Positions 10,108 through 32,599 of a stretch of DNA of 39,261 bases are shown here, piece by piece. The position numbers and the translations under genes were made by a program. The DNA is from an uncultured Muribaculaceae bacterium. Its GTDB lineage: Bacteria > Bacillota_I > Bacilli_A > RF39 > UBA660. The notes beneath the pieces were generated by a model that was given only the letters and a program-made list of their open reading frames with translations, ran no database searches and had not been told where the DNA came from. Positions within the stretch are counted from its first letter, which is position 1. Each line of letters starts with the position of its first letter. The stretch covers positions 1 to 39,261 of the forward strand of contig CAYOUK010000002.1 of the NCBI GenBank assembly GCA_964407175.1, given 5' to 3'.

Positions 10108-10145
10108 TTATAAAAAAACCTAATTGTTTTTTTACAATTAGGTTT
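10108..10145 (-). terminator. Factor-independent terminator after the giant gene
   Basis: 11-bp perfect stem AAACCTAATTG (10116-10126) / CAATTAGGTTT (10135-10145) with an 8-nt loop, followed on the minus strand by TTTTTATAAAAAAA. The stop codon lies inside the stem. Confidence 0.7.
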
Positions 10146-13100
10146 ATTCATATACACTAAGTTTTCCAAGTACATCTCTAACCATTTGACTAACGACTCC
10201 ACTTACTACATCATCTGTTAAATTATTGCCATTTTGATTAAGTTCAATACCAACAGAAGACAGTAATCGTTTTAGAACGGTAGAAGCTTCAGATGTAAAC
10301 ATTCCTTGGTCTGCGCCCGATAATACATCTCTAAATGTCGATGCATATGTCCATATAAGTGATCCAAATTCCTCAAGTGTTGGAACATGATCCATAGACA
10401 CATATATTCTAGTTGGATCTTCACTTTTAATAAGTTTTTCTCCGTTTGTAACATTTTTATAAGCTTCATAATCTAGTTTATTCTGCTTAGTTATAAGTTT
10501 TTGAATATTAGCCTTTAAATCCCATTCTTCAGATTGATTCGAATCTGATTTGTAACTAGAGAATACGTCTTTGATATCTTGTTTTACTTCAGGGGTGTAT
10601 TTAATTGTCTGAACTGGAGATACAATATCATTACAATAATCATTTCCACCATAGTATATACACCATAAGAATGGACTATACCAGTGATATCCAATGTTAT
10701 TATCCTGGTTATTATATCTTCTATATACATAATCAGGTACAGTAGTAGATGCGCTTGATGATGTATCTTTAAAATCAACTATCCATTTAGTAGAACCATC
10801 AGCATTATCAAATCTTCTTACATTTCCGTCGCTATCTTCTTCCGAAAGCCCATTATAATCAACAATTCCAAGAGACCAATCGGCATATCCTCTTCTTTGG
10901 TTTCCGCCAACTGCAGAATTATTGTTAAGAGTTCCGCTGTTATCAGTAATTATAGACATTTTCACTCTATTATAACGACGTATTAGTCTCATTGTAGGAG
11001 TGGATAACCTAAATGTGAATTTATCCTTACCTGTTAAAACTTGATAATCATTATCTGCTTGTTTAAATAAGTTGTCTTCAGAATCATCTCCTGTACCAGC
11101 TAACCTAGATGCTTTATATGCCTCTATTCTTTGAACAAGACCATTATAAGGACCTTTTGTTGATGCTAGATTACTATAGTTCCAGTTTGCTCCAAGCGCT
11201 CTTTTTTGAGGATTAATATCGCTTAAGGCAATAGTTCTATAGAAGAAGTTAGCGTTTCCTAAATCTTCATCTACTTTATATGAACATACATATTGTTCTG
11301 TTCCACCCGAACCAATATATCCATCACTAGTTAAAGTTTTGGCTTCGTGCGGACTAGATATATTTGCTTTATCTGCAAGACCTTGATTCTTAATATAGTT
11401 TTGAAGTGAATAATCATCTACAGTATTATCATGTGATACTTCTGAAACCATTTCAGAATCTATTCCGCCCACTTGAGATGATGCTTTTGACCATTCATCC
11501 CATGTACTTTGTGGAACTTTACTTGGTTTTTCTGTGTCTAATGTTGGCATCTTTCTTGTTGGTCCCATATTTATATCGACACTTATTCTAAAATTCTTAG
11601 TTCCACTTGTTGTATCAAATCCAATTGGAATCGAGTTATTCGGAAGTACAACATATTCAGAGTTTTTAGCAAGTACACTATCATCAAACTTATCCATATA
11701 TGTTATGGCAGTACCACCCTTAACTATTATTTGAGGAATAGATGCATAAAGAACTATATTTTCACTCTTATAATAATAGTCTTTAACTGTCCAGAATCCA
11801 TTTAAGAAGTCATACCAGAACTTTTCTAAGTTTACTCCAAGAGATGTAATGACATTTTGATCAGCATAGTCTTCCGCTGCTGGGATAGCCGCACATTTTG
11901 CCCACATTCTTTCATAAAATGAATCTCCTGTTTCATTCTGCAAGTCAGCAGCGGTTGTATCTGAACAAGCATATACTGGAGAAGACCTTGAGTCATCAGC
12001 ACTAGTTAGTTCATTACCACTTTCATCTGCACAGAAGATACCAAGGTCAGCAAGACTAAGTTCTCCATTTTCACCAGCTTGAACCTCAATAAACTGTTTA
12101 TGTAAATTAGGACACTTAATAGCTCTTAAATCAAGATCTATATATCCTTGATTATCTTTTATAGCAGTATCATAATCATCATAATATAATCTTGCTTTAA
12201 CTATTGGTGTGTTGCTAGAGTTATTACCCTTAATATACTCAGTAATACTATTGGCAATCTGAGCTCTCTCAGTTGGATCAGTTGTTTGATTATGATCTAA
12301 ATCAATACCAAATAAATTACTATATTGTAGATAATTTTTAAAGAACTGATGTTGAACGTTGAAATTAACTTGATTGACAAGAATATCTGTAGGGTTAAAA
12401 GTACGTGTACTAAGCGCCTTGGTAGATACACATGTTTTCTTGAGTTCTATTTTAGCAATAGGTGCTCTTGTATCAATTGTTTTATTATTAAATTCTCTAT
12501 TATAAGTAAAGTATGAGTTATTATTACCAATCGTTACAAACTGACCTTTTTGACCACTATCCTGAATACCAGGATAAGTTATTTTATATGCATCAGCACA
12601 TACTATATCCATACCGCGATATCTAAGTGATTTCATAGAATCAGGAAGTATACTATATCCAACTCCAGTGGCTTTTCCTCTTGATAACTGTGAATACCAG
12701 CTGTCATAATCTCTAATAACATTTCCAGAGCTATCTTTTTCTATTCTATTTGGAGATGCTTCGATGTATTTACCAGATGATACTTCTTGGTAATCATCTA
12801 CAGTACAAGCATAATCCATATCTATATGATATGCTTTACATTTAACAACAGGTGTAGTTGTTGTTTGCATAAATGTGGTTAGTTCAGCAGATAATGCCCC
12901 GGTAATACCTGAGTGAGCAAAAGTGTCTCTATTATAGTATGGGTTATCACTTAATTCTATTCTTTGATAATGGATTTTGCTATCTGTTGCTCCCCATCTA
13001 AAACCATTGTAACCAGCATATTCATAATGATAATTACCATTGGCGTCATAACAACACTCTGTTTCTTCGTTACATCCACATGTTTTTACTTGTAATATTG

Positions 13101-15252
13101 CAGATAAGTCAGCAGCATAAATATGCTTAGTCATAGCTGATATTACCGGCGGCCATCCCCAAGTATCACTTATACTGAACTGTGTTGCAGTTCCTTTCAT
13201 TTGTCGAGCCTGGCTTTCAGGGACTGCTTTAGCGCCACTTAACAATAGTGCTTCTATGCCATCTAAACCTAGGACTTTATCTACACCCTCTGAAACACTT
13301 TTAGATGAAATTAGGGTGAAGAAGGTATCTACTCCATTTTGGAGAAGGTCTGTGGTCATGTCCCCAAATAATCCAGCAGTCTTGACAGATTCTAATAGTT
13401 TATAAGTTTCTATTTGTTCTATTTCTTTAGAATCTAATGGCACTAAATTACCATCTACTATTTTTTTAGATTCTTTCAACATATTTGCTGTTCCATTGTA
13501 ATTTAGACCAGTCGAGTCATAACAACACTCTATTTCTGGATCACAACCACAGCTTTTCATTATTACTTTGTTTTGGTCTGCTACAGGAAGTTTATCGGCT
13601 TTTAACAAATCAATATTTTGATAATTAGTTCTACCATTAGAGTCAGTATATGGTATAACAGCGCGATATCTGTCTAATACGTTTGGAACCTGTATTTGTA
13701 TTGTATTTCTGCGTCCTTCCTCGTCTCCTGAAAGATATACTGTTTCAGCAAAAAGTGTTGGTTTATCTTTAACGTATTCATACCTTAGGGATGCCGCATT
13801 AACGTTACCAAGGATATTACTTATACTGCTGTCGGCGATTTCATTAACTTTGTCATGTATATTACCAATGATATTTAAACTATCAAAAAGACTAATAATT
13901 TGACTTCTACCAATGATGTCGTTTAATTTATTACTAGCATCTTGAAGTGCATTATAAGCACCAAATAAACCTTGGTTAGTTTTTTTATAACAACATTCTT
14001 CTAATGGATTACATGTAATTTCACACTTTGTTAGAATTCCTCCACTTGTGTCACTTCCATGTTCTTTTCCATCCCAATATCCAGTTTTAGTATATGTATA
14101 ATGATCAGGTGTATCTTTACGAATAGTTGAATCATAATGAACCACTACATTACCATTTTCATCTACGTTAGTTTGACTACCACCTGATAACATATCCATA
14201 ATCCTCGAGAATATTCCAGAAAGAAAACCTCCCGTATTACTGTTACTTGTTGCACCGGAGAATGAAGCTCCATCTGCATAACAACAAGTCTTATTTTCAT
14301 CACATGGTTCTACGGTTGGTCCCTCACAAGTATATGCCATTACATATATTACAGGCGAATAGTAAAAGTATGTACAATCAGCAAAAGGTGATGTTATTTG
14401 ATTACACACTGAAATTTCTGTACCAGGAGGTACTGTTGGTAAAAATGAAGAATAATAAGCTTCAGTAGAAGCCTTTTTTCTTTCGACAAGAAATTTTTTC
14501 GCATTGCCATTTCCATAAAAAGGAATACTAAAGTCGCTAGAAGTATAATTTTTTGATAAAGATTTTCCAGAATAACCGCCAGAATATGTAGGTTTTTCAA
14601 AATATAAATCTACTTTTGTCTTAGGCAATAAAGTTGACTTTTCATTAACAGGATAAATTGTTCCTGTTATTGCCCTAGACGCAGTAAAGTCCCAAGCATT
14701 AGTAATATCTTCGTCGCTGTGTGAATTAACACCCGCATTGCTACCTGGAATAATTAATCTAATTTCTGATGTGTTATCTCCACTACCAATTACTTTATAT
14801 ATATAATTGTTTTCATTAGGTGTCCATCCGTTCTCTGATTTTTTGTTAGAATATAAATCTGTTATTTTCTTTAATTGATTCCAGTATTCATCAACGCTCC
14901 AATTATTTTTAAGATCTAACCCTGAAATTGAACCTGAGCAGGTACTGGCATTTTCTACTGTTTGATTTCTTCCATAATTTCCTCCAATAAATGTTAGATG
15001 ATGAGTTGTATTAAAACCTATTGTGCCAGAACAACCAACTCTATAGATATGCTCATCAAATTGAAAGAAATCGTATGGTTCAGAAAGATTCTCGTGAGCG
15101 TCAAAGGAATATTCCCCAGCTCTAAAGAAATAAATATTGTAATAAGTTCTTCCCTGGACACATGAAAAATTATCGGTGTTGTCCATTTCGGCATATACAT
15201 CGATAACAAAACACACTAAAAGAATAAGTAGAATGTTTAATACTTTTTTCAT
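10144..15252 (-). CDS. 1702-aa secreted giant protein of unknown function with four C-x-C-x5-CCY cysteine clusters
   Basis: Uninterrupted 5.1-kb ORF with Sec signal peptide MKKVLNILLILLVCFVIDVYA/EMD. It has no C-terminal TM and no LPXTG. The start overlaps the stop of the upstream gene (ATGA), with SD AAAGGGG upstream. Confidence 0.8.
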   Translation of the reverse strand: MKKVLNILLILLVCFVIDVYAEMDNTDNFSCVQGRTYYNIYFFRAGEYSFDAHENLSEPYDFFQFDEHIYRVGCSGTIGFNTTHHLTFIGGNYGRNQTVENASTCSGSISGLDLKNNWSVDEYWNQLKKITDLYSNKKSENGWTPNENNYIYKVIGSGDNTSEIRLIIPGSNAGVNSHSDEDITNAWDFTASRAITGTIYPVNEKSTLLPKTKVDLYFEKPTYSGGYSGKSLSKNYTSSDFSIPFYGNGNAKKFLVERKKASTEAYYSSFLPTVPPGTEISVCNQITSPFADCTYFYYSPVIYVMAYTCEGPTVEPCDENKTCCYADGASFSGATSNSNTGGFLSGIFSRIMDMLSGGSQTNVDENGNVVVHYDSTIRKDTPDHYTYTKTGYWDGKEHGSDTSGGILTKCEITCNPLEECCYKKTNQGLFGAYNALQDASNKLNDIIGRSQIISLFDSLNIIGNIHDKVNEIADSSISNILGNVNAASLRYEYVKDKPTLFAETVYLSGDEEGRRNTIQIQVPNVLDRYRAVIPYTDSNGRTNYQNIDLLKADKLPVADQNKVIMKSCGCDPEIECCYDSTGLNYNGTANMLKESKKIVDGNLVPLDSKEIEQIETYKLLESVKTAGLFGDMTTDLLQNGVDTFFTLISSKSVSEGVDKVLGLDGIEALLLSGAKAVPESQARQMKGTATQFSISDTWGWPPVISAMTKHIYAADLSAILQVKTCGCNEETECCYDANGNYHYEYAGYNGFRWGATDSKIHYQRIELSDNPYYNRDTFAHSGITGALSAELTTFMQTTTTPVVKCKAYHIDMDYACTVDDYQEVSSGKYIEASPNRIEKDSSGNVIRDYDSWYSQLSRGKATGVGYSILPDSMKSLRYRGMDIVCADAYKITYPGIQDSGQKGQFVTIGNNNSYFTYNREFNNKTIDTRAPIAKIELKKTCVSTKALSTRTFNPTDILVNQVNFNVQHQFFKNYLQYSNLFGIDLDHNQTTDPTERAQIANSITEYIKGNNSSNTPIVKARLYYDDYDTAIKDNQGYIDLDLRAIKCPNLHKQFIEVQAGENGELSLADLGIFCADESGNELTSADDSRSSPVYACSDTTAADLQNETGDSFYERMWAKCAAIPAAEDYADQNVITSLGVNLEKFWYDFLNGFWTVKDYYYKSENIVLYASIPQIIVKGGTAITYMDKFDDSVLAKNSEYVVLPNNSIPIGFDTTSGTKNFRISVDINMGPTRKMPTLDTEKPSKVPQSTWDEWSKASSQVGGIDSEMVSEVSHDNTVDDYSLQNYIKNQGLADKANISSPHEAKTLTSDGYIGSGGTEQYVCSYKVDEDLGNANFFYRTIALSDINPQKRALGANWNYSNLASTKGPYNGLVQRIEAYKASRLAGTGDDSEDNLFKQADNDYQVLTGKDKFTFRLSTPTMRLIRRYNRVKMSIITDNSGTLNNNSAVGGNQRRGYADWSLGIVDYNGLSEEDSDGNVRRFDNADGSTKWIVDFKDTSSSASTTVPDYVYRRYNNQDNNIGYHWYSPFLWCIYYGGNDYCNDIVSPVQTIKYTPEVKQDIKDVFSSYKSDSNQSEEWDLKANIQKLITKQNKLDYEAYKNVTNGEKLIKSEDPTRIYVSMDHVPTLEEFGSLIWTYASTFRDVLSGADQGMFTSEASTVLKRLLSSVGIELNQNGNNLTDDVVSGVVSQMVRDVLGKLSVYE

Positions 15253-24666: not shown

Positions 24667-25476
24667 TCATCTTTTCTTTTTTTCTATATCTTTTATACTT
24701 TTATTTGGAGTTGGCATATTTTCTGGCATTGTTCCTCCTGCTTTTTTTATTGCTTTTCTAACAATCTTTCCGACTTCATTATGTGCTTTATTAGCATTAG
24801 ATTCTCCTTCTATTTTTTCTCTTTTCAATTTATCATCAGTTTGAGTAATTCTAAAAAGATTAGCAGCAAGCTCAATACTTCCCATATTATCCAGAATATC
24901 TTCCCTATACCTTAATCCTTTTCTATTGGCACTATCAGCAACAGTCTCTCCATTATATAATCCTTTATACCCTGCATTATGAAAACTATCAAAGTTTTTA
25001 ACGCCGCTTTTTTTTGCGGTTTGATTAAGAGAATAATTGCCCCTTCTTGTCAATGCCCTTTGAAATAATCTTTTGTCATCTTCTGAAATGCTATTATACC
25101 CGATTTCTAATAATTCTTGTTTTCTTGTTTGAACTGCAAAATAAGTCTGTGCCAAAGCCACGACTTCTTTTCTTGGATCAGCATTTTGAGCAATCAAATA
25201 ACAGGCATACCTAGTCAATTTATAACTTTTAACATATTGTGTGTTTCCGTTTCCACCTTTTATCGGTTTCCTAATATCAAGAAACTGTTCATTTAATTCT
25301 TTTTCACTTAAAACACAAGCTATCTTTGCTTTTTTAATAACCTTATGAAAGTTTTCCCACTTGTTATATTCTAGTATTTTCTGTAATTCTCTAGCGTCCC
25401 AATATTCTTTTTTATATTTGTCCATATGTTTAATTTTCTCAAACATACTTTCAGTATTATTAATAATTTCTTTCAT
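24667..25476 (-). CDS. dinD: DNA damage-inducible protein D homolog (Bro-N/KilA-N-like N-domain)
   Basis: RYACYLIAQNADPRKEVVALAQTYFAVQTRKQE, MGSIELAANLFRITQTDDKLKRE and GGTMPENMPTP..SIK match E. coli DinD blocks from memory. Strong SD AGGAGG. Confidence 0.8.
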   Translation of the reverse strand: MKEIINNTESMFEKIKHMDKYKKEYWDARELQKILEYNKWENFHKVIKKAKIACVLSEKELNEQFLDIRKPIKGGNGNTQYVKSYKLTRYACYLIAQNADPRKEVVALAQTYFAVQTRKQELLEIGYNSISEDDKRLFQRALTRRGNYSLNQTAKKSGVKNFDSFHNAGYKGLYNGETVADSANRKGLRYREDILDNMGSIELAANLFRITQTDDKLKREKIEGESNANKAHNEVGKIVRKAIKKAGGTMPENMPTPNKSIKDIEKKKR

Positions 25477-25527: not shown

Positions 25528-25543
25528 AAGAGGATAACCTCTT
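25528..25543 (-). terminator. Short terminator hairpin after the 788-aa gene
   Basis: AAGAGG (25528-25533) pairs with CCTCTT (25538-25543) with a 4-nt loop, followed on the minus strand by TTTTTTATGAG. The stop codon is inside the stem. The stem is only 6 bp. Confidence 0.45.
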
Positions 25544-27908
25544 ATTTTATTATTTCAAAATGCATACCATGATAAACCTTCATAGAATCCCCTGGTTTAT
25601 ATTTTTCTCCATTTGATGAATCAACAGAGTATTTTACATTTTTCTTCTTAGGTAATTTATATGTAGAACCCTCTTCTTCAAGATACTTGTATTTATTCTT
25701 TTCCGTTACTTTATCTTCAGAAGTAGTAACCATCCACATAGTTTTACCTTTAATATTAGTTATTGGTTTTTTATACATAGATTCATTCATTTGGTTTTCT
25801 TTTAAATATACTTTAAATTTATCTAGAGTTATGTAATCATAATCGACAAGCAGTTTTATTTCTCTTGCTCTTAAACCTTCATAAAGGTTTCTTGGAAGAG
25901 TATCTTTAAATGTATCATATGTATAATCGTTAGCCTTTAGTATTTCATTTCTTATCTCTGGCCACTTAATATTTTTATCAAAACCATATAGATTAGATAA
26001 AGATACTTCATCATCTGTCGTTAATACATCATTTGCGATTAAGTTATAATTATTTGTAGTAACTACATGGTAATACTTAATCGGTTTGTTAATTTTTTCT
26101 ATGTTTTCAACAGCGACTGTTTCTAAAGTGCCATCTTCACTTACTTTAGCTATCTTGATTCCTTTTTTAAATGATTTACTTGCAGTATTTATAAATTCAT
26201 ACTTATCCATATCGAATAGTCCATGTTTTTTAACAACATTTAAAATGGTTCCATCTGATAAAGTAATTTTAGTGTAAGAAGATTCAGTTTCCTCTTTTTC
26301 CACCCATATTGGATATGCACTACCTTCCTTACCTTCAGTATAATTCCAAACTGAAACTAGGTCGTTGTAGTCAATATCTTCAATACGTTTATATGAACCA
26401 TCAGCCATTTTAATAAGTGTTCCTTCAGCGAGGCAACCACCACCACCAGAAGCTTCACCTGATATTACAACTTTACCAGTTACAGAAGCAATTTTAAAAG
26501 TATAATTTTGATTACTATTTCTAGTATACGTATACTGACTTGTTGTAAGTGTTCTACCACCCATTGTAACTGAATCAAGTGATGATGGGACCGTATATAA
26601 TCCAGAGGCAGTAATATTAAATTCTAATGCATCACCAGCTTCAACTTCACTAGGACCAGTATTAGAAAGATTAGTTAATTTATAAGTAACAGTGTATTTC
26701 CAAGAAAGTCTTGTATCACTACTTTTAGATGCATAACCAGAAGCAGTTGTTGCTCCATCGATAGTTTGAGCATCCGGTTCTTTATCTAGTGTATCTCTAC
26801 CATATACAAGGGCATAATAATCTAAGCCACCTTTTACTCCTTTAAATGGAATTGATGTTTCACTTCCTGTTGTCTGTTTTTCCTCAACGAGTGTTCCATC
26901 TTTTTTATATAATCTTACTGTGTAATATTTAATTCCACTTTCATCAGTGCCACTCCAAGAAACTGTTGCAGAACCCGCAGTTGTTTCTTTAGCAATTGTA
27001 ACATCTGAAATAACTGGTGGACCAGAATCATTTAAAGATGCGTCTATATCTACAGATACAGATACATTACCAGCAGCTGATGATGGTAAATCTGTCGATT
27101 TAATCATTACTGTAACTGATTGAGGACTTGAAGCAAAACCTGTTTGATTTAGTCTAGTTATATAGAATGTATAGTTTTGTGTATCCCCTGCTGCTATGTT
27201 GTAACTAAGAGGATTACCAGAAGCATCAGTAATACTAAAGTTATTTGTATCTGTTGGAGCTAGTGTAAATGTCTTAGCACTTTGATATGAATTAATTACA
27301 CTTACTGTGTATGGACCAGCGATAGTATTGTTCCCTGTTAAATCTCCAGTTGCGCCATCTGCAATACTTCCAAGTAAACTTCCGTATAATTCTGGAGTTG
27401 TATCGGTATCTAGAGATGCATCCGCAGAATATGAACCACTGTTATCAAGTGGAGTAAGGGTTACTCTGACTGCAAAAGTTCTAGATGTTCTAGAAGGTAT
27501 CTTCTCCCCTTCTTCTATATCTTCAAAAGTAAAATCAATTGTAGCATTTGCAGTATCACCAAAATCTATATCTGGTGTAAACTTATCTGATCCAAAAGTA
27601 TAATCATAAAAACTATCATTAGATATAGTTATATTATATACAGCATAATATGTATCATTCATACCATTTCCACTAAAAGCAAAATGGAAATCTATATTTT
27701 CGTCTGAAAAACTAGGATTTTCAGTATTAGTTAAGTTATTATTATCAGTTAATATTACATTACTAATTCTAATCTTACCTTGAGTAGTAATAATAGTTGT
27801 TCCACGCGCAAAAAGGCTTGCCCCATAAGTGGCAAAACCTACCCCAGAAAACACAACAAATAATATAACTATTAAAAATATTGAAATTTGTACTATTTTA
27901 TTTTTCAC
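25542..27908 (-). CDS. Large exported fibre-associated protein: SipW-type leader, TasA-like N-domain, Ig/FN3 domains, Hint domain, unknown C-domain
   Basis: The leader ends in GVGFATY, the same motif as the 191-aa subunit. An FN3-like segment spans aa ~297-378 (SATVSWSGT...YYTVRLY...YYALVYG). GGGG/CLAEGTLI at aa 488-499 starts a Hint fold. The GTG start forms a GTGA overlap with the upstream stop. Confidence 0.75.
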   Translation of the reverse strand: MKNKIVQISIFLIVILFVVFSGVGFATYGASLFARGTTIITTQGKIRISNVILTDNNNLTNTENPSFSDENIDFHFAFSGNGMNDTYYAVYNITISNDSFYDYTFGSDKFTPDIDFGDTANATIDFTFEDIEEGEKIPSRTSRTFAVRVTLTPLDNSGSYSADASLDTDTTPELYGSLLGSIADGATGDLTGNNTIAGPYTVSVINSYQSAKTFTLAPTDTNNFSITDASGNPLSYNIAAGDTQNYTFYITRLNQTGFASSPQSVTVMIKSTDLPSSAAGNVSVSVDIDASLNDSGPPVISDVTIAKETTAGSATVSWSGTDESGIKYYTVRLYKKDGTLVEEKQTTGSETSIPFKGVKGGLDYYALVYGRDTLDKEPDAQTIDGATTASGYASKSSDTRLSWKYTVTYKLTNLSNTGPSEVEAGDALEFNITASGLYTVPSSLDSVTMGGRTLTTSQYTYTRNSNQNYTFKIASVTGKVVISGEASGGGGCLAEGTLIKMADGSYKRIEDIDYNDLVSVWNYTEGKEGSAYPIWVEKEETESSYTKITLSDGTILNVVKKHGLFDMDKYEFINTASKSFKKGIKIAKVSEDGTLETVAVENIEKINKPIKYYHVVTTNNYNLIANDVLTTDDEVSLSNLYGFDKNIKWPEIRNEILKANDYTYDTFKDTLPRNLYEGLRAREIKLLVDYDYITLDKFKVYLKENQMNESMYKKPITNIKGKTMWMVTTSEDKVTEKNKYKYLEEEGSTYKLPKKKNVKYSVDSSNGEKYKPGDSMKVYHGMHFEIIK

Positions 27909-28945
27909 TTGCCATCACTCTTTAATATATATTGCCATGCATTAGTATCACTAATAAGTGTGAAATAGCAAACCCCAGTTCTTTCATTTTCATAATAATT
28001 AATAGGCATTCTTATTTCACTATGAGCATCTATTAATTCATCAAATGATTCTGTTTTAATAACACTTAATCCATCTAAATCAGGATTATTCTTAACATTT
28101 ACTATTATACTATCATATGTACTAAGTATTTTCTTTTTAGTAATCTCAAATTTATGTCTATGCTCTACTTCTTTTTTTATTCTATACATACAAGCTATTA
28201 CATAAATGCTTATTAGTATAAACAGTACACCAACAGCTTTAAATAGTAAATATTTAGCATCATGTTTTTTAACTACTGTTTCTATTTTTTTATTTGTATT
28301 ATTATTATCTTTATCTATGTTTGCTTCAACTGCTAGAGATGATAATGGAATATTAAACCCAAGTGATGAATTAATTGGTTTTAAATCCATACTATTGTTT
28401 GTTAAATTATTAGTTACTTTTAAATATACTGATAATTTACCATCTAATGATAATCCCATCGCTGTCTTGAAATCATTTAATATACCATTAAATTTATTAT
28501 AATCCACCTTTATTGAATTTGAAATCAAATAATTACTAGCATTATTAATCTCTATTGTTTGTTTATCAGATAGAGGATAATCTTTTGTCCAATATACTCC
28601 ATCTTCACCATTCGGTTTACTAGCTTCTATAGTAGCCATAATATAGTACTCATATGTACCACTAACTTCTTTATCAAATTCAATATTGTAGTTATAATCC
28701 ACATTAATATAATCAATTAAGTTTGTTATATACGTTTTGTTTTCTTCTAAGTATGGCTCATCAAAGAAGTCATTTGGTTTAAGATAAACCTTATATTTAA
28801 CATCTGATTTACTTGTATCATATGTAAGAAAAATAGTTTCATTGTTGTCAAAACCTTTAGATAGGAAAAATACACCACATCCAAGAAAACACAAAGATAT
28901 AATTGTCAAAATAACATATGTAAATGTAATCTTCTTTGATTTCAT
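27905..28945 (-). CDS. Two-TM accessory membrane protein (architecture like DUF5305-type SipW-neighbour proteins)
   Basis: TM1 at aa ~9-28, a ~200-aa ectodomain, TM2 at aa ~233-253 and a ~90-aa cytoplasmic tail. SD AAGGGA is upstream. It is translationally coupled to the downstream gene. The DUF5305 call is recollection only. Confidence 0.5.
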   Translation of the reverse strand: MKSKKITFTYVILTIISLCFLGCGVFFLSKGFDNNETIFLTYDTSKSDVKYKVYLKPNDFFDEPYLEENKTYITNLIDYINVDYNYNIEFDKEVSGTYEYYIMATIEASKPNGEDGVYWTKDYPLSDKQTIEINNASNYLISNSIKVDYNKFNGILNDFKTAMGLSLDGKLSVYLKVTNNLTNNSMDLKPINSSLGFNIPLSSLAVEANIDKDNNNTNKKIETVVKKHDAKYLLFKAVGVLFILISIYVIACMYRIKKEVEHRHKFEITKKKILSTYDSIIVNVKNNPDLDGLSVIKTESFDELIDAHSEIRMPINYYENERTGVCYFTLISDTNAWQYILKSDGK

Positions 28946-28967: not shown

Positions 28968-30089
28968 TTAATCTATTACTTCTCTAACCCATATGGTTGG
29001 ATATCCTATGTATTTAACTACATATTTTACTTTACCCAAAACCGCCTGATTTGTTATTTTAATATTATCTGGTGTGTTATTGGCATCACCTTTTGTAACG
29101 ATGGTAACTTGATCACCGTTTTTCTTGATAGAATGTATTCTGTGTGTTACTACTATTCCGTTTCTATTAAATGCGATTACTTCACCATTTCTAAGTTTAC
29201 TTGGTTCTATCTTTTCATATATAACTGCATCACCTTTATAGAATGCTGGAACCATTGAATTTGAACCAATCGCTAAGATCTTATATTTAAACAATCCAGT
29301 GATAAGCGATATCATAACAAATGCAAATATTGCAATTGGTACCATTACTATCCACCTAGAAGCCCTTTTACTGTAAATTGCTCCTTTCTCTTTATAGTTA
29401 ATCGTCTTCCTCGAGAAAAAGTATACAGTATATGGCATAAGTACGTGAACAACACTATTAATGTAATTGCCGACATTTGGAATTAATGGCGTAAAGAACG
29501 CGTAAAATAAAGGCACTATTCTATAAACCATACCTGGTAAATAACTAACTTTATAAGTTAGATATGAACAAAGTGTTTGTTTTGCAATCGCGGGAACTAT
29601 AACGACACAAACGAAAATGAATATCATTTCTCTACTATGCAAATTATAACCTTTTATTTGCATTACAATATCTAATATTATAAGTATTAAAGTATATATT
29701 ATTAAAGGCTTTTTATTCTTTTGCCCATTTCTTGCAATAATATATCTTATTAATTCTTCAGATATAACAAGTACTATATCTAGTAACAGATAATTAAATA
29801 TATTGGACCATGTAAAATATATTGCATTTCTACTAAATCCCATAAAAAATCCAAAGAAGAATATAATAAGTAGAAACGCTAAAAGTGTAGCAATAACAAC
29901 TCTTACTACATTTCCCTTAGTATAATTATTATCTTTCATTACACCATATTTAATAGCCATAAAAATAGCCATCATTAAAAATAGTAATGTAATTACTAGT
30001 AAGTTGTTATTTTGATTAACTCTATTAGATATTATAATAAAAATAAATAATATTATTTCTATTAAGTATAGTCCTCTTATTCTTTTCAT
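28968..30089 (-). CDS. ER/archaeal-type (SipW-like, S26B) signal peptidase I fused to an N-terminal ~245-aa polytopic membrane domain
   Basis: The C-terminal ~130 aa read GSNSMVP (catalytic Ser box), VVTHRI (His box) and TKGDANNTPD, as in SipW/Sec11-type peptidases. The N-terminal part has about 6-8 predicted TM helices. The start is uncertain: ATG 30089 (MKRIRG...) is preferred over the track's TTG at 30107. Confidence 0.7.
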   Translation of the reverse strand: MKRIRGLYLIEIILFIFIIISNRVNQNNNLLVITLLFLMMAIFMAIKYGVMKDNNYTKGNVVRVVIATLLAFLLIIFFFGFFMGFSRNAIYFTWSNIFNYLLLDIVLVISEELIRYIIARNGQKNKKPLIIYTLILIILDIVMQIKGYNLHSREMIFIFVCVVIVPAIAKQTLCSYLTYKVSYLPGMVYRIVPLFYAFFTPLIPNVGNYINSVVHVLMPYTVYFFSRKTINYKEKGAIYSKRASRWIVMVPIAIFAFVMISLITGLFKYKILAIGSNSMVPAFYKGDAVIYEKIEPSKLRNGEVIAFNRNGIVVTHRIHSIKKNGDQVTIVTKGDANNTPDNIKITNQAVLGKVKYVVKYIGYPTIWVREVID

Positions 30090-30118
30090 TGCAATCATCT
30101 CTTTCAATAAAACAAATC

Positions 30119-30145
30119 ACTATCTGCCTATAAAAGGCAGATAGT
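30119..30145 (-). terminator. Stem-loop between the subunit gene and the signal peptidase gene (attenuator or stabiliser)
   Basis: 10-bp perfect stem ACTATCTGCC (30119-30128) / GGCAGATAGT (30136-30145) with a 7-nt loop, followed on the minus strand by GATTTGTTTTATTG. Confidence 0.5.
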
Positions 30146-30173: not shown

Positions 30174-30749
30174 TTATGATGATTGCGTAGATTGTGAATT
30201 AGCATCTTCGTAATATAGAGATGCAGTTAGAGTAATTGTTTGATCTGTACTTGGTAAGTCGCTAGAGCTTTCAGGTTGTAAGTATTCAACTCTTACCTTA
30301 ACTGGCTTACTAGTGTTTTTAGCTAAAGCTATGTTTAAATTATTATTAGTTGCAGTATATTCTGTACCATCATAGTATACTGAATATTTTAAATATTTAG
30401 CTTGTTCTGCAGTTAATGCAGTCATAGTTAATTTCTTTAATACAGCGTCGATAGTACCAAAGTTTTTAGCATCTGCTGTTGCTTCATAGAAGTCACCTGG
30501 TTCATTTAGTGTTACTGTAAATGTCCAATCAGTAGCAGTTAAAGTGCTAGGGTTAGCAGTAACGCTTCCTGTTAGTGGTGTAATTCCTTTTTCAGTATCA
30601 TACTGAACTTTCCATTCAGATTTTTTAACTGTAGCAGTACCGTTAATGTTAAGTGTTTGTGTATAAGTCGCAAAACCTACTGACATTACAAGTATAGCAA
30701 CAGCTAATACCGCAATAATAATTGTTTGTGTACTCTTTTCTTTTTTCAT
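30174..30749 (-). CDS. TasA/CalY-like (M73-fold-like) secreted fibre subunit candidate
   Basis: The leader MKKEKSTQTIIIAVLAVAILVMSVGFA/TY is followed by TLNINGTATV and LNEPGDFYEATADAKNFGTIDAVL. This resembles the TasA/camelysin L.PGD....F.v.N.G...A block. Very strong SD AGGAGGAG. It has its own promoter and is the first gene of the operon. Confidence 0.55.
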   Translation of the reverse strand: MKKEKSTQTIIIAVLAVAILVMSVGFATYTQTLNINGTATVKKSEWKVQYDTEKGITPLTGSVTANPSTLTATDWTFTVTLNEPGDFYEATADAKNFGTIDAVLKKLTMTALTAEQAKYLKYSVYYDGTEYTATNNNLNIALAKNTSKPVKVRVEYLQPESSSDLPSTDQTITLTASLYYEDANSQSTQSS

Positions 30750-30775: not shown

Positions 30776-30805
30776 ATTTTATCACAAATAGTGGCTTTTC
30801 GTCAA
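30776..30805 (-). promoter_or_regulatory. Sigma-A type promoter of the fibre operon
   Basis: The minus strand reads TTGACG (complement of 30800-30805), an 18-nt spacer, then TGATAAAAT, an extended -10 (TAAAAT is the complement of 30776-30781). It directly follows the terminator of the HerA-like gene. Confidence 0.55.
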
Positions 30806-30810
30806 TATAA

Positions 30811-30835
30811 AAAACCACTACTTTATAGTGGTTTT
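30811..30835 (-). terminator. Factor-independent terminator after the HerA-like gene
   Basis: AAAACCACT (30811-30819) pairs with AGTGGTTTT (30827-30835) with a 7-nt loop, followed on the minus strand by TTATATT. Confidence 0.6.
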
Positions 30836-30838
30836 ACT

Positions 30839-32599
30839 TTATTGCCATGCTTTTGCAACATCTGCATTAGAACTGTATGGCGTTGGATTAGGCATTTGTA
30901 GTTTCGTTATAAGTGGTATTTGGAATGCAGAACCAAAGCTTATACAAATACCTGGTTGCAAGCTAGAAAGCTTTTTAATTATATCTACACTCATGCCCGG
31001 AAGCATTTTTTCAATGTAATTAACATCCGCTGGATGGGTTGTTTTAAATATTAAGAAATTTGAAATCTGTGAAATAACAGTGTCAGATAATTCGACAGGT
31101 CTTTGACTAATAATGTCAAGTAAGACACCATATTTACGCCCTTCTTTAGCAATACGTTCAAATATATTATAACCAATTAAGAAATTATCCTTATCATTTT
31201 GAACATATCTATGTGCTTCTTCTAAGAATAAATGGAATGGAATACTTGCTCTTTCAGGTCTGCTCTTAGCAAAATCGAAGAACATTCTAGCAAATATCTT
31301 AACTATTACTTTAGCAAGTTGGTCATCTATACCTTCTAAGTTAATATTAACTATTTGACAACGTTTATTGTCTTGTACAACTAATCTTGATATATATTGT
31401 TCTAGTGTAATAAAGTCTGGATAGTTAAATAATCTTTTATTAGTTGAATTAACTATTGAATGAAGTCTAACTTGAAGCATAGTTGCTGCATTTTGAAATT
31501 GAGAGTTTTCTTGAATGCCTTCACTGATAAGAGTAAATTCTAAAGCAGTTTCAAAATCTTCTATAGAAAAATACTGATTATCTTCTGGCATATTATTCTC
31601 TAGGCTTTCATCTAAGAATGATGAAATATATTGATTAATTAATACAGATTCAGAGAATTGCCCATTAGAATCTATTTCAAAACAATCAGCAAGACTTCTT
31701 GTAAATCCAACACCTTGTAGCTGCGCATTAAAGTTAAACTGTGGTGTATTTGTTTTATTAAGTAGTTTAAATACTTCGTTCTTTTTTCCAGAGTTTGTTA
31801 AACTAGAGAAAAGAATCGCTGTTAAAGCCTTTGCAATTAAGTGGTTTTTTAAACTTAAACTTCCCTCATCTTTTCTTGCAAAAATTCTAACAAGTTTTAA
31901 CGCTCTTTCAAGAAGCGTCATTTGTGAATGTTCTGTTGCATTAAGCATAAGAGCAATATCATCTAGAGTTAGAAGATAAATTGGTATTGATAAATCTTCA
32001 TCTGTTGGTTCTTGTTTATTAGAAGTTATAAATTTATAGTTATAATTAGCATTTAATTGACTTATGTTTCTAAAAGCATTTTTATATTCACCATATGCGT
32101 CGAAGAATATTAAATTAGCACTTTTAACTACCATTTCAGGATTAGAAAAGATATTTTGGATGATTCTTGCTGTTGCACATGATTTACCTGAACCAGATGA
32201 TCCAAGCACTGCAAAGTGATTAGAAAATAAAGCATTAACATCTACATACATTGGATAATTATTATATAAAGGCGTATATCCAAGTAAAAACTCCCCTGGT
32301 CCTTTATCTCCGATTAGTATTTTTAACTCTGCTTCATTAATAAGTCTTAGTTTAGAATCAAGGGTTGGTTTTTTAACTATACCTGGAACAAATTTATTAT
32401 CAGTTGAAAACTCACCTAATAATTTAACTGTTAATGTTTCATCGTTAATATCATCTACTTCCCCTAGTATTCTTTGTTGACCACTCATAAAAATCACATG
32501 TAGGTTCATCAAATCTGGCATTGCATTACCAGTTTTATTAAGAGAAACAACAGCGTTATCATCAGATATTTTAAGTATATTTCCAAACACTCTAACCAT
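30839..32599 (-). CDS. HerA/FtsK-superfamily ATPase (DUF87-like), orphan
   Basis: An N-terminal beta-barrel-like region (GNILKISDDNAVVSL...ILGEVDDI) is followed by Walker A AVLGSSGSGKSC and Walker B FHLFLEEAHRYV, with C-terminal GICISFGSAF. This is the HerA layout. The start is uncertain: ATG 32599 has a poor SD and GTG 32590 is possible. Confidence 0.65.
   Translation of the reverse strand: MVRVFGNILKISDDNAVVSLNKTGNAMPDLMNLHVIFMSGQQRILGEVDDINDETLTVKLLGEFSTDNKFVPGIVKKPTLDSKLRLINEAELKILIGDKGPGEFLLGYTPLYNNYPMYVDVNALFSNHFAVLGSSGSGKSCATARIIQNIFSNPEMVVKSANLIFFDAYGEYKNAFRNISQLNANYNYKFITSNKQEPTDEDLSIPIYLLTLDDIALMLNATEHSQMTLLERALKLVRIFARKDEGSLSLKNHLIAKALTAILFSSLTNSGKKNEVFKLLNKTNTPQFNFNAQLQGVGFTRSLADCFEIDSNGQFSESVLINQYISSFLDESLENNMPEDNQYFSIEDFETALEFTLISEGIQENSQFQNAATMLQVRLHSIVNSTNKRLFNYPDFITLEQYISRLVVQDNKRCQIVNINLEGIDDQLAKVIVKIFARMFFDFAKSRPERASIPFHLFLEEAHRYVQNDKDNFLIGYNIFERIAKEGRKYGVLLDIISQRPVELSDTVISQISNFLIFKTTHPADVNYIEKMLPGMSVDIIKKLSSLQPGICISFGSAFQIPLITKLQMPNPTPYSSNADVAKAWQ

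Follow-up and report, generated by a model that had tools for sequence, protein, structure and literature searches.

We analyzed a 39,261-nucleotide (nt) stretch of DNA, hereafter called the window, from an uncultured bacterium of the RF39 lineage (contig CAYOUK010000002.1 of assembly GCA_964407175.1). The window encodes a four-gene cassette of the kind that accompanies extracellular protein fibers, and the last of these genes specifies a large exported protein of 788 amino acids (aa) that ends in a Hint (hedgehog/intein-like) domain followed by a 156-aa tail. By sequence profile and predicted structure, aa 492-632 of this protein are confirmed as a genuine Hint domain that has hitherto gone unannotated and that belongs to a subfamily outside current models. 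Judging from its residues, the domain is a non-splicing Hint, which would be equipped for an N-S acyl shift and not for trans-esterification, Asn cyclization, or ligation. We favor the reading that the protein is a large minor subunit with a self-processing C-terminal module, whose cleavage would mature or release the N-terminal fragment (N-fragment), and we put the probability of this reading at roughly 0.55.

An earlier, sequence-only reading of the window had placed a Hint domain at positions 26013-26435 of this exported protein and a further domain at 25545-26012. These limits agree exactly with the translation, and the existence of the domain is borne out by independent searches. A profile built from 12 homologues matches the Hint domain of BIL2, a bacterial intein-like (BIL) domain of the Tetrahymena BUBL protein (6y75/6tmm), over its full length at an E value of 1.4e-5, and matches several inteins more weakly. 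In this alignment, H562 of the window protein falls on catalytic H69 of BIL2, and T631 and D632 coincide with its penultimate His and terminal Asn, respectively. According to the depositors of the BIL2 structure, H69 is the key catalytic histidine of block B (PMC8616854). We also built an AlphaFold2 (AF2) model of aa 487-788, which reached a predicted local distance difference test (pLDDT) score of 91.9 and a predicted template modeling (pTM) score of 0.89. When this model was compared with the PDB by using Foldseek, 63 matches were obtained at E values of 1e-3 or lower, and all 50 of the 50 matches listed are Hint domains. The top match is again BIL2 (6y75; E value of 4e-10), with a template modeling score of 0.82 when normalized to the target (0.82-0.86 for the best matches). 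Behind it come the gp41-1, RecA, DnaB, and DnaE mini-inteins, the Clostridium thermocellum BIL domain 2lwy, and Hedgehog (1at0/6tyy). Taken together, the profile match, the residue alignment, and the predicted structure settle the Hint assignment.

Curated models perform differently on this domain. The Pfam models Hint, Hom_end_hint, and Hint_2 score 14-17 bits on the window protein, all under their cutoffs, and the best score among the curated profiles considered (Hint, Hint_2, Hom_end_hint, PT-HINT, Vint, and Intein_splicing) is 16.8 bits for PF01079 against a cutoff of 29.7. Likewise, no Pfam Hint model reaches its gathering score in any of 13 full-length family members that were scanned, and the only NCBIfam hit is a weak one to a radical SAM protein, within its intein part. 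Because its scores lie below the Pfam gathering thresholds, the domain would escape automatic annotation.

The Hint domain and the tail make up the last 297 codons of the 788-aa open reading frame (ORF). Translation of positions 25542-26450 reads SGGGG-C492-LAEGTLIKMADGS ... VVKKH562GLF ... YYHVVTTNNYNLIANDVLTTD632-D633 ... EIIK and then the stop codon (25542-25544); the tail as a whole (25545-26012) consists of D633 plus 155 residues. For an assessment of the catalytic positions, 106 module sequences were aligned from 5 residues before the first Hint residue (Cys1) to the C-terminus. Position 1 is Cys in all 106 relatives that cover the junction, and the residue before it is small (G, T, or S) in 71 of them. 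In the alignment itself, 105 of 106 rows have both Cys1 and the block-B His, the remaining row being gapped at both columns. Block A (C-L-x-x-G-T), in which C492 precedes L-x-x-G-T, is under strong constraint in the family, and the F/G-block signature Y-Y-x-V-x-S-x-x-Y-Y-N-[IV]-I-A-N-D-[IL]-L is kept, with N622 conserved at 96%. Residue E537 (position 46 of the Hint domain) is 92% conserved and might match Hedgehog D46, the base that activates cholesterol.

Two catalytic positions are less uniform. The F-block Asp position is variable (H/N/F/Q), and the block-B Thr is replaced by Val in the window protein. The sequence-only reading had remarked on the lack of this Thr, which holds for the window protein but not for the family as a whole, where Thr occupies the aligned position in 58 of 106 relatives with one extra residue before the His.

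At its C-terminal end, the domain departs from splicing relatives. The His-Asn pair of block G is absent, with T631-D632 in its place, which argues against classification as an intein or a type A BIL domain. Across the family, the end of the Hint domain follows a T-[TS]-D consensus in which T630 is 93% and D632 is 75% conserved (E, S, Y, and N being the alternatives). A conserved +1 nucleophile is also absent; the window protein has D633 at this position, other family members have G, D, or P, and there is no Cys after Cys1 in 49 of 77 full-length relatives. The combination of Cys1 and a block-B His with neither His-Asn nor a +1 nucleophile agrees with the earlier classification of the domain as non-splicing. 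Because a terminal Asn, a penultimate His, and a downstream nucleophile are all missing, scission between Gly491 and Cys492 would be the sole productive outcome, and from these residues we expect an N-terminal thioester and cleavage at this bond only. Non-splicing Hints resolve the thioester via hydrolysis or an external nucleophile (PMC7242414; PMC7765530).

A natural comparison is provided by orthologues that have no Hint domain. A search with aa 1-491, followed by a profile search, led to a set of 129 sequences. Fifty-two of these represent orthologue clusters of ~500-540 aa that carry the whole N-fragment without the module and that stop either at the junction or up to 3 residues from it. 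In form B (31 clusters), the protein ends in ...VTGDIAITANATRSGGGC followed by 0-3 residues, and its Cys is as far from the last Ig-like domain as Cys492 is; this terminal Cys is preceded by Gly in 22 of the 31. Form C (21 clusters) ends just past the last domain and has no Cys. Contigs were examined for two Hint-less orthologues, and both genes belong to a cassette that also encodes the small subunit, the peptidase, and DUF5305, as in the window. In a distance tree built from the N-fragments, the state inferred for the root is the one with the Hint domain; proteins without it belong mostly to one clade, and the form changes at least six times. The domain has been lost cleanly and not by decay.

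The Hint-less orthologues end at the predicted cleavage site, which suggests that the mature product is the N-fragment. We conclude that this fragment, up to the Gly linker, is sufficient by itself as a functional unit and is what Hint cleavage between Gly491 and Cys492 would yield. Hint-less orthologues with a lone terminal Cys (P0167-P0201, P0221-P0224; L055:8001-9500) have endings such as ...ATRSGGGCGG at the stop codon, and the number of Cys residues in them is mostly odd; this Cys is missing from a sister group. For the Hint-less protein of L055, read-through of the stop codon was considered and rejected because several stops follow.

The 156 residues after the Hint domain had been described by the sequence-only reading as one unknown domain. 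Its length and position are correct, but the tail is composed of two sub-domains, a helical region and a beta domain that resembles the InlB B-repeat (Listeria-Bacteroides repeat). In the AF2 model, aa 633-721 form six short helices that make a compact multi-helix unit. This region of ~85 aa follows every Hint domain of the family, even in members that end there (P0010, P0011, P0078, P0080, P0122, P0128, P0166, and the Saccharibacteria loci L038 and L042). Its conserved positions include N639 (96%), F643 (88%), Y641 (80%), and W649 (80%), and R680 and E683 are nearly invariant. The region is hydrophilic, with a maximum Kyte-Doolittle value of about 0.5. The first ~30 tail residues have pLDDT scores of 87-89 when modeled with the Hint domain versus 43-67 when modeled without it, and this gain suggests that they pack on the Hint domain.

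The assignment of the beta domain relies on repeat proteins. The family profile matches P0135, P0140, and P0155 through 7-8 repeated stretches with E values of 2e-18 to 2e-15, and according to Pfam these proteins carry 11-15 copies of PF09479 (Flg_new, the InlB B-repeat family). Furthermore, a hidden Markov model of the beta sub-domain matches Flg_new proteins repeat by repeat and in register. A Foldseek search of the tail against BFVD placed 'Internalin B' models on top with a weak E value of 0.013. The same kind of search against the PDB returned nothing below an E value of 0.7 (InlB at rank 24, E value of 2.7), the sequence-profile search of the PDB gave no match to the tail, and the PF09479 gathering score is not reached in the tail of the window protein or in 13 relatives.

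The distal end of the module exists in three variants, namely the beta domain, nothing, or an acidic Pro/Glu-rich linker with a transmembrane (TM) helix. The last of these occurs in P0006, P0009, P0075, and L045, where the beta domain is exchanged for the linker, a hydrophobic helix, and a short charged tail. This series after the Hint domain looks like a sorting signal, and an interchangeable distal end fits a role in cell association. As a separate observation, the motif [AS]EP[LE]G.T precedes the hydrophobic helix in the protein at L045:7688-11002 (Saccharibacteria, Nanosyncoccus metagenome-assembled genome [MAG]) and in P0006, P0009, and P0075.

The genetic setting had been read as an operon of the signal-peptidase/fiber type, and this holds. 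The four genes are co-directional with the Hint gene last, and promoter-like and terminator-like sites bracket exactly these four. The Hint gene has a GTG start and overlaps the stop of the DUF5305 gene by 4 nt. The signal peptidase encoded by the cassette has at least seven hydrophobic segments, and the N-termini of the small and large exported proteins share the motif ...VGFATY..L...GT. We presume that the shared segment at aa 22-37 of the large protein is a signal peptidase site with a donor-strand-like N-terminus and that the 191-aa small protein is the major fiber subunit. Judging from sequence, the strong hairpin at 30119-30145 may terminate transcription in part and thereby adjust the subunit stoichiometry; a hairpin after the small-subunit gene is the arrangement expected if this subunit is in large excess over the other three.

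Donor-strand fibers of the TasA superfamily, such as Tafi in haloarchaea, are accompanied by DUF5305 and a dedicated signal peptidase (PMC11821415). AbpX in archaea and Bacillota is likewise accompanied by DUF5305 and a dedicated peptidase, which has ten TM helices, and AbpX loci encode minor and tip subunits, to which bacterial loci add LPXTG or SLH anchor proteins (bioRxiv 10.64898/2026.01.04.697558). For these loci, AlphaFold 3 (AF3) predicts donor-strand oligomers of anchor proteins with the fibril subunit (bioRxiv 10.64898/2026.01.04.697558). The window cassette matches AbpX/Tafi-type loci in its multi-TM signal peptidase I and DUF5305. A profile of 20 small subunits has no Pfam match, and its hit to AbpX (9sj2) in the PDB is weak (E value of 0.68). 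We therefore use the label 'TasA-type' because of gene content, since sequence homology is not established. The large protein had been called FN3/TasA-like; its FN3 domain is sub-threshold in the window protein but passes the Pfam cutoff in the orthologues P0031 and P0037, and FN3 domains are the only matches in its PDB profile search. A likeness to TasA is not demonstrated by its sequence.

To map the family, a tail-only profile was searched against 1.84 billion representative proteins. At least 251 clusters (50% identity) were recovered at E values of 1e-3 or lower, 175 of which have values of 1e-10 or lower. The Hint domain lies directly upstream of the tail in every long match except three Flg_new multi-repeat proteins. 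A locus scan restricted to one genome per species then gave 54 loci from 54 species-level genomes, none of them closer than 58% identity over the module. They derive from rumen and gut MAGs labeled Bacilli, 'Tenericutes', Erysipelotrichaceae, Clostridia, and Saccharibacteria. The small subunit is the conserved first gene of the cassette in most loci, and the complete four-gene order on one strand occurs in about 33 of 54. The module usually forms the end of the large subunit in this cassette. The sequence-only reading had proposed to survey whether orthologous operons retain it, and the 52 orthologue clusters described above do without it. There is no conserved gene downstream of the Hint gene in 45 loci, where the neighbor differs in nearly every case.

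The module is also attached to other kinds of protein. It is fused to N-termini like those of type IV pilins or pseudopilins (MKK.KGFTLVELL...) in P0026, P0063, P0068, P0138, and also P0116, and it is found on the 2470-aa protein P0156, in which a short tandem N-terminal repeat is taken as a candidate BspA-type leucine-rich repeat (LRR). These fusions to pilin-like and LRR-like proteins make the module look portable among surface and fiber proteins. At L039, L043, L046, and L047, the Hint module resides on a protein with a different N-terminal part, and the next gene encodes a signal peptide and then ...SGIYAYxSYEIAxVENNxVSGAVNIE. This N-terminus presumably resembles those of TasA and camelysin. 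These four appear to represent a second type of fiber locus that uses the same module.

The sequence of events that we envisage for the window protein is as follows. The precursor would be exported via Sec, and the cassette peptidase would remove its N-terminal signal. The C-terminal third would then serve as the self-processing module, comprising the Hint domain (492-632), the helical region (633-721), and the InlB-B-repeat-like beta domain (722-788). With the help of His562, Cys492 would attack the carbonyl of Gly491 in an N-S acyl shift to give a thioester, and the chain would break between these two residues into an N-fragment of ~460 aa that is rich in Ig/FN3 domains and a C-fragment of ~33 kDa. 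We take the N-fragment as the functional, fiber-associated part. The C-fragment could be a removable tether or assembly aid that keeps the precursor on the cell surface by way of the beta domain or, in some relatives, of a membrane anchor, and cleavage would then mature or free the N-fragment. That cleavage takes place at all, in which order the steps run, that the C-fragment is a tether, and which acyl acceptor is used (water or another) are inferences.

Several points weigh against this scheme. If the module simply removed itself, a strictly conserved helical region of ~85 aa would seem unnecessary, and PT-HINT and BIL domains work without such a region. Catalysis could be slow or conditional, given the missing block-B Thr and the variable F-block Asp. 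Moreover, form-B orthologues keep a lone terminal Cys without a Hint domain, and conservation of Cys492 could therefore reflect in part another thiol role. This makes Cys492 conservation alone a weaker proof of catalysis, for which the invariant His562 is better evidence. Finally, we know of no wall- or membrane-binding function established for Flg_new repeats, and the tether role is conjecture.

The conserved helical region is a reason to consider that the Gly491 thioester might instead be attacked by a specific nucleophile that this region recruits, in the manner of an adduct recognition region. Acceptors for such Hog-like or sortase-like ligation could be amines of peptidoglycan or lipid II, hydroxyls of teichoic acids or glycolipids, or, in another fiber subunit, a Lys or the N-terminal amine, and the terminal subunit of the fiber would become covalently anchored or cross-linked without sortase. 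The presence of the ~85-aa region after the Hint domain in every variant mirrors the pairing of Hint with the sterol recognition region (SRR) in Hedgehog, where deletion of the SRR leaves proteolysis intact and abolishes ligation (PMC7242414). Near-invariant polar residues (N639, R680, and E683) in the helical region are consistent with this idea, as is the fact that BIL2, the closest solved homologue, conjugates its N-terminal flank to lysine amines (PMC8616854). The AbpX-type bacterial loci encode LPXTG/SLH anchors that AF3 predicts to co-assemble with the fibril subunit, and the variants with a C-terminal TM helix and charged tail resemble the topology of sorting signals. Against ligation, the helical region is hydrophilic, neither the SRR nor any solved structure shows detectable homology to it, and the sequence names no acceptor. 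The same family also includes form-C orthologues with neither a terminal Cys nor a recognizable anchor, and the form-B orthologues examined reside in the same cassette, which argues that attachment is dispensable. Because many orthologues of this gene set lack the module altogether and end at the junction, covalent C-terminal attachment is not essential to the system. We treat ligation, which the sequence-only reading had also raised, as the main rival to simple cleavage but as distinctly less probable. The stronger version, in which the Hint domain and helical region constitute a bacterial extracellular Hog-like ligase that joins the terminal fiber subunit via Gly491 to an envelope or fiber nucleophile, independently of sortase and of any other enzyme, is about equally tentative.

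Other explanations fare less well. The Hint domain could be catalytically dead and be kept as a structural or adhesive module, with Cys492 retained as a free thiol or for an intermolecular disulfide. The form-B proteins lend this idea some weight, because they keep the Gly-rich tail with Cys and a mostly odd number of Cys residues after loss of the Hint domain, and so does the variation of the block-B Thr and the F-block Asp. We nevertheless consider a dead domain unlikely, since His562 is invariant (105/106), the block A and F/G-block residues are strongly constrained, the Cys sits exactly at Hint position 1 after small residues, and the domain has been lost cleanly without decay. The sequence-only reading had also raised the prospect that the tail is a released effector. 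In polymorphic toxin systems, HINT domains do precede C-terminal toxins, and the tail has a basic composition with many K and Y residues. Yet the 156 aa that would be freed are conserved in at least 251 clusters and are not polymorphic, they comprise a helical linker and a Flg_new-like repeat, and in relatives they are shortened or swapped for a membrane anchor. Searches of the tail and the protein with PADLOC gave no match, no toxin match was found in the PDB, Pfam, or NCBIfam, and no immunity gene follows in the 45 loci with their nearly always different downstream genes. In addition, cleavage only at the N-terminus of the Hint domain would leave the tail attached to it. The effector idea thus did not hold up and we judge it very improbable, so the module would be a processing or anchoring device, not a toxin. 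An equally poor prospect is intein-like splicing, or C-terminal cleavage through cyclization of Asp632. This residue does occupy the position of the terminal Asn of inteins, and some inteins have Asp or Gln there. However, D632 is only 75% conserved and is otherwise E, S, Y, or N, there is no penultimate His or downstream Cys, and the +1 residue is G, D, or P. The Hint-less orthologues stop at the site and thus offer no C-extein to ligate. The reading of a self-processing subunit that is cleaved after Gly491 remains the one that we prefer.

The coordinates of the module, the cassette, and neighboring features are compiled in Table 1. The window derives from the chromosome of a low-GC spore former and also encodes SpoIVA, SMC, ScpA/B, RNase III, topoisomerase I, and an LtaS-like sulfatase. 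Locus L001 is syntenic with the window beyond the cassette (81% identity for HerA and 70% for SpoIVA), and because spoIVA directly follows the Hint gene there, the DinD-like gene of the window looks like an insertion. No obvious nuclease or sirtuin partner is encoded next to HerA, as small ORFs alone occupy the 870-bp stretch to topA. A search of the entire window with Rfam produced no match.

Table 1. Positions of the Hint module, its cassette, and other features in the window
Feature	Position	Strand	Basis or remark
Large exported subunit with Hint module	25542..27908	-	788 aa; fourth gene of conserved cassette
Signal peptide (TM segment, aa 5-23) and shared motif GVGFATYGASLFARGT (aa 22-37)	27798..27908	-	Motif common to most of 85 long family members
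FN3-like domain, aa 301-371, within N-fragment	26796..27008	-	Pfam 18.9 bits versus cutoff of 25 (sub-threshold)
Gly4 linker, aa 488-491, with Gly491 as predicted new C-terminus and carbonyl of the thioester	26436..26447	-	Translation
Cys492, predicted Hint nucleophile	26433..26435	-	Sole cysteine of the 788-aa protein
His562, block-B histidine	26223..26225	-	Aligns with catalytic H69 of BIL2
Hint domain, aa 492-632, ending in T-T-D instead of x-H-N	26013..26435	-	Profile, AF2 model, Foldseek, family alignment
Conserved helical region, aa 633-721, motif LSNLYGF	25746..26012	-	Follows each Hint of the family
Beta sub-domain, aa 722-788, of the Listeria-Bacteroides repeat/InlB B-repeat kind	25545..25745	-	Profile matches to Flg_new proteins
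Terminator-like hairpin at stop codon of large gene, end of four-gene unit	25528..25543	-	Hairpin search
DUF5305 two-TM protein, putative signal peptidase accessory subunit	27905..28945	-	PF17231 46.3 bits versus cutoff of 29
SipW/archaeal-type signal peptidase I, 379 aa, long multi-TM N-terminal extension	28968..30107	-	TIGR02228 84.6 bits (above cutoff); Peptidase_S24/S26
Terminator-like hairpin between small-subunit and peptidase genes	30119..30145	-	11-bp stem, T-rich tail
Small exported subunit, 191 aa, first gene; N-terminus ...MSVGFATYTQTLNINGTATV in common with large protein	30174..30749	-	BLASTP of N-termini, E value of 2e-4
Promoter-like site upstream of small-subunit gene	30776..30805	-	TTGACG-18-TAAAAT, 10/12, TG extension; consensus match only
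Terminator-like hairpin closing HerA gene	30811-30835		Just before promoter-like site
HerA-type ATPase immediately upstream of cassette	30839-32599	-	PADLOC HerA, E value of 2e-104; DUF87
DinD-like gene between cassette and spoIVA	24667-25476	-	NCBIfam PRK11525, E value of 1e-97; PADLOC candidate defense PDC-S13, E value of 2e-97
1702-aa ORF	10144-15252	-	No Pfam match at E values of 1e-3 or lower

Non-splicing Hints are known from Hedgehog, BIL domains, and polymorphic toxins. What is new here is the systematic use of a Hint domain in a surface-fiber system of uncultured gut bacteria. Should cleavage occur, the module would define how a class of surface fibers in gut bacteria is matured or released. 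If ligation were true, it would constitute a new anchoring chemistry for the Gram-positive envelope that is widespread in uncultured gut Bacilli, Clostridia, and Saccharibacteria and that also occurs on type IV pilin-like proteins, and a compact, extracellular, cofactor-free ligation module would be of biotechnological interest. The existence of three forms of the large subunit in related lineages (Hint, terminal Cys only, or neither) is a natural experiment that makes the question directly testable.

We found no report of such a module: the papers on Tafi (PMC11821415) and AbpX (bioRxiv 10.64898/2026.01.04.697558) do not mention one, and a literature search on Hint or intein-like domains in pili, TasA, or surface anchoring yielded nothing relevant. 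The domain represents a Hint subfamily that comes with a partner region of its own and that has a fixed place at the C-terminal end of the large subunit in a fiber cassette. The closest parallel to the cassette is found in AbpX loci, which share a small subunit, a multi-TM signal peptidase I, DUF5305, and a larger accessory protein whose N-terminus is predicted to link it to the fiber (bioRxiv 10.64898/2026.01.04.697558). Unlike the AbpX anchors, the window protein has no LPXTG motif, SLH domain, or sortase, although sortase and Hint both use a thioester at the new C-terminus of a surface protein. The beta domain has its counterpart in the Flg_new repeat (PF09479), as its last ~45-65 residues (...F.GWYNT.D...Y.PGD.V.V..G.HF.A.Y) match each repeat of the multi-repeat proteins, whereas the window copy is single, divergent, and not called by Pfam. 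PT-HINT domains (PF07591) similarly stand ahead of a C-terminal domain in exported multidomain proteins, but the window protein has no PF07591 match, its C-terminal domain is conserved, and no immunity gene accompanies it.

Among Hint domains with solved structures, BIL2 of BUBL1 from Tetrahymena thermophila (6Y75/6TMM) is the best match in both sequence and structure. Its Cys1 and block-B His align with those of the window protein, and it acts on its own N-terminal flank via a thioester. However, BIL2 keeps the His-Asn pair, lies between two ubiquitin-like domains in a eukaryote, and ligates its N-terminal flank to lysines, whereas the window Hint is extracellular, ends in T-D, and is followed by the helical region and the beta repeat. 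Hedgehog/Hog proteins share the fold (1at0, 6tyy) and offer the nearest architecture, in that a secreted protein carries a non-splicing Hint toward its C-terminus and its N-fragment is the functional part (PMC7242414). In them, too, the Hint domain is directly followed by a conserved and mostly helical region of 50-100 aa. The helical region of the window protein has no detectable sequence homology to the SRR, and it is a hydrophilic, compact multi-helix unit in contrast to the amphipathic helix-loop-helix of the SRR. The host is bacterial, and the likeness to Hedgehog is one of architecture only.

BIL domains were reportedly described by Amitai et al. in 2003 and Dassa et al. in 2004. Like the window protein, those of type B are bacterial Hints of secreted or surface proteins that keep the N-terminal intein motifs and have lost the C-terminal one, and N-terminal cleavage is expected of them (PMC7765530). 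By description, they are set apart in that BIL domains are located in hypervariable regions of non-conserved proteins (PMC7765530), whereas the window Hint occupies the same place in conserved, orthologous proteins of a conserved operon and always comes with its partner region.

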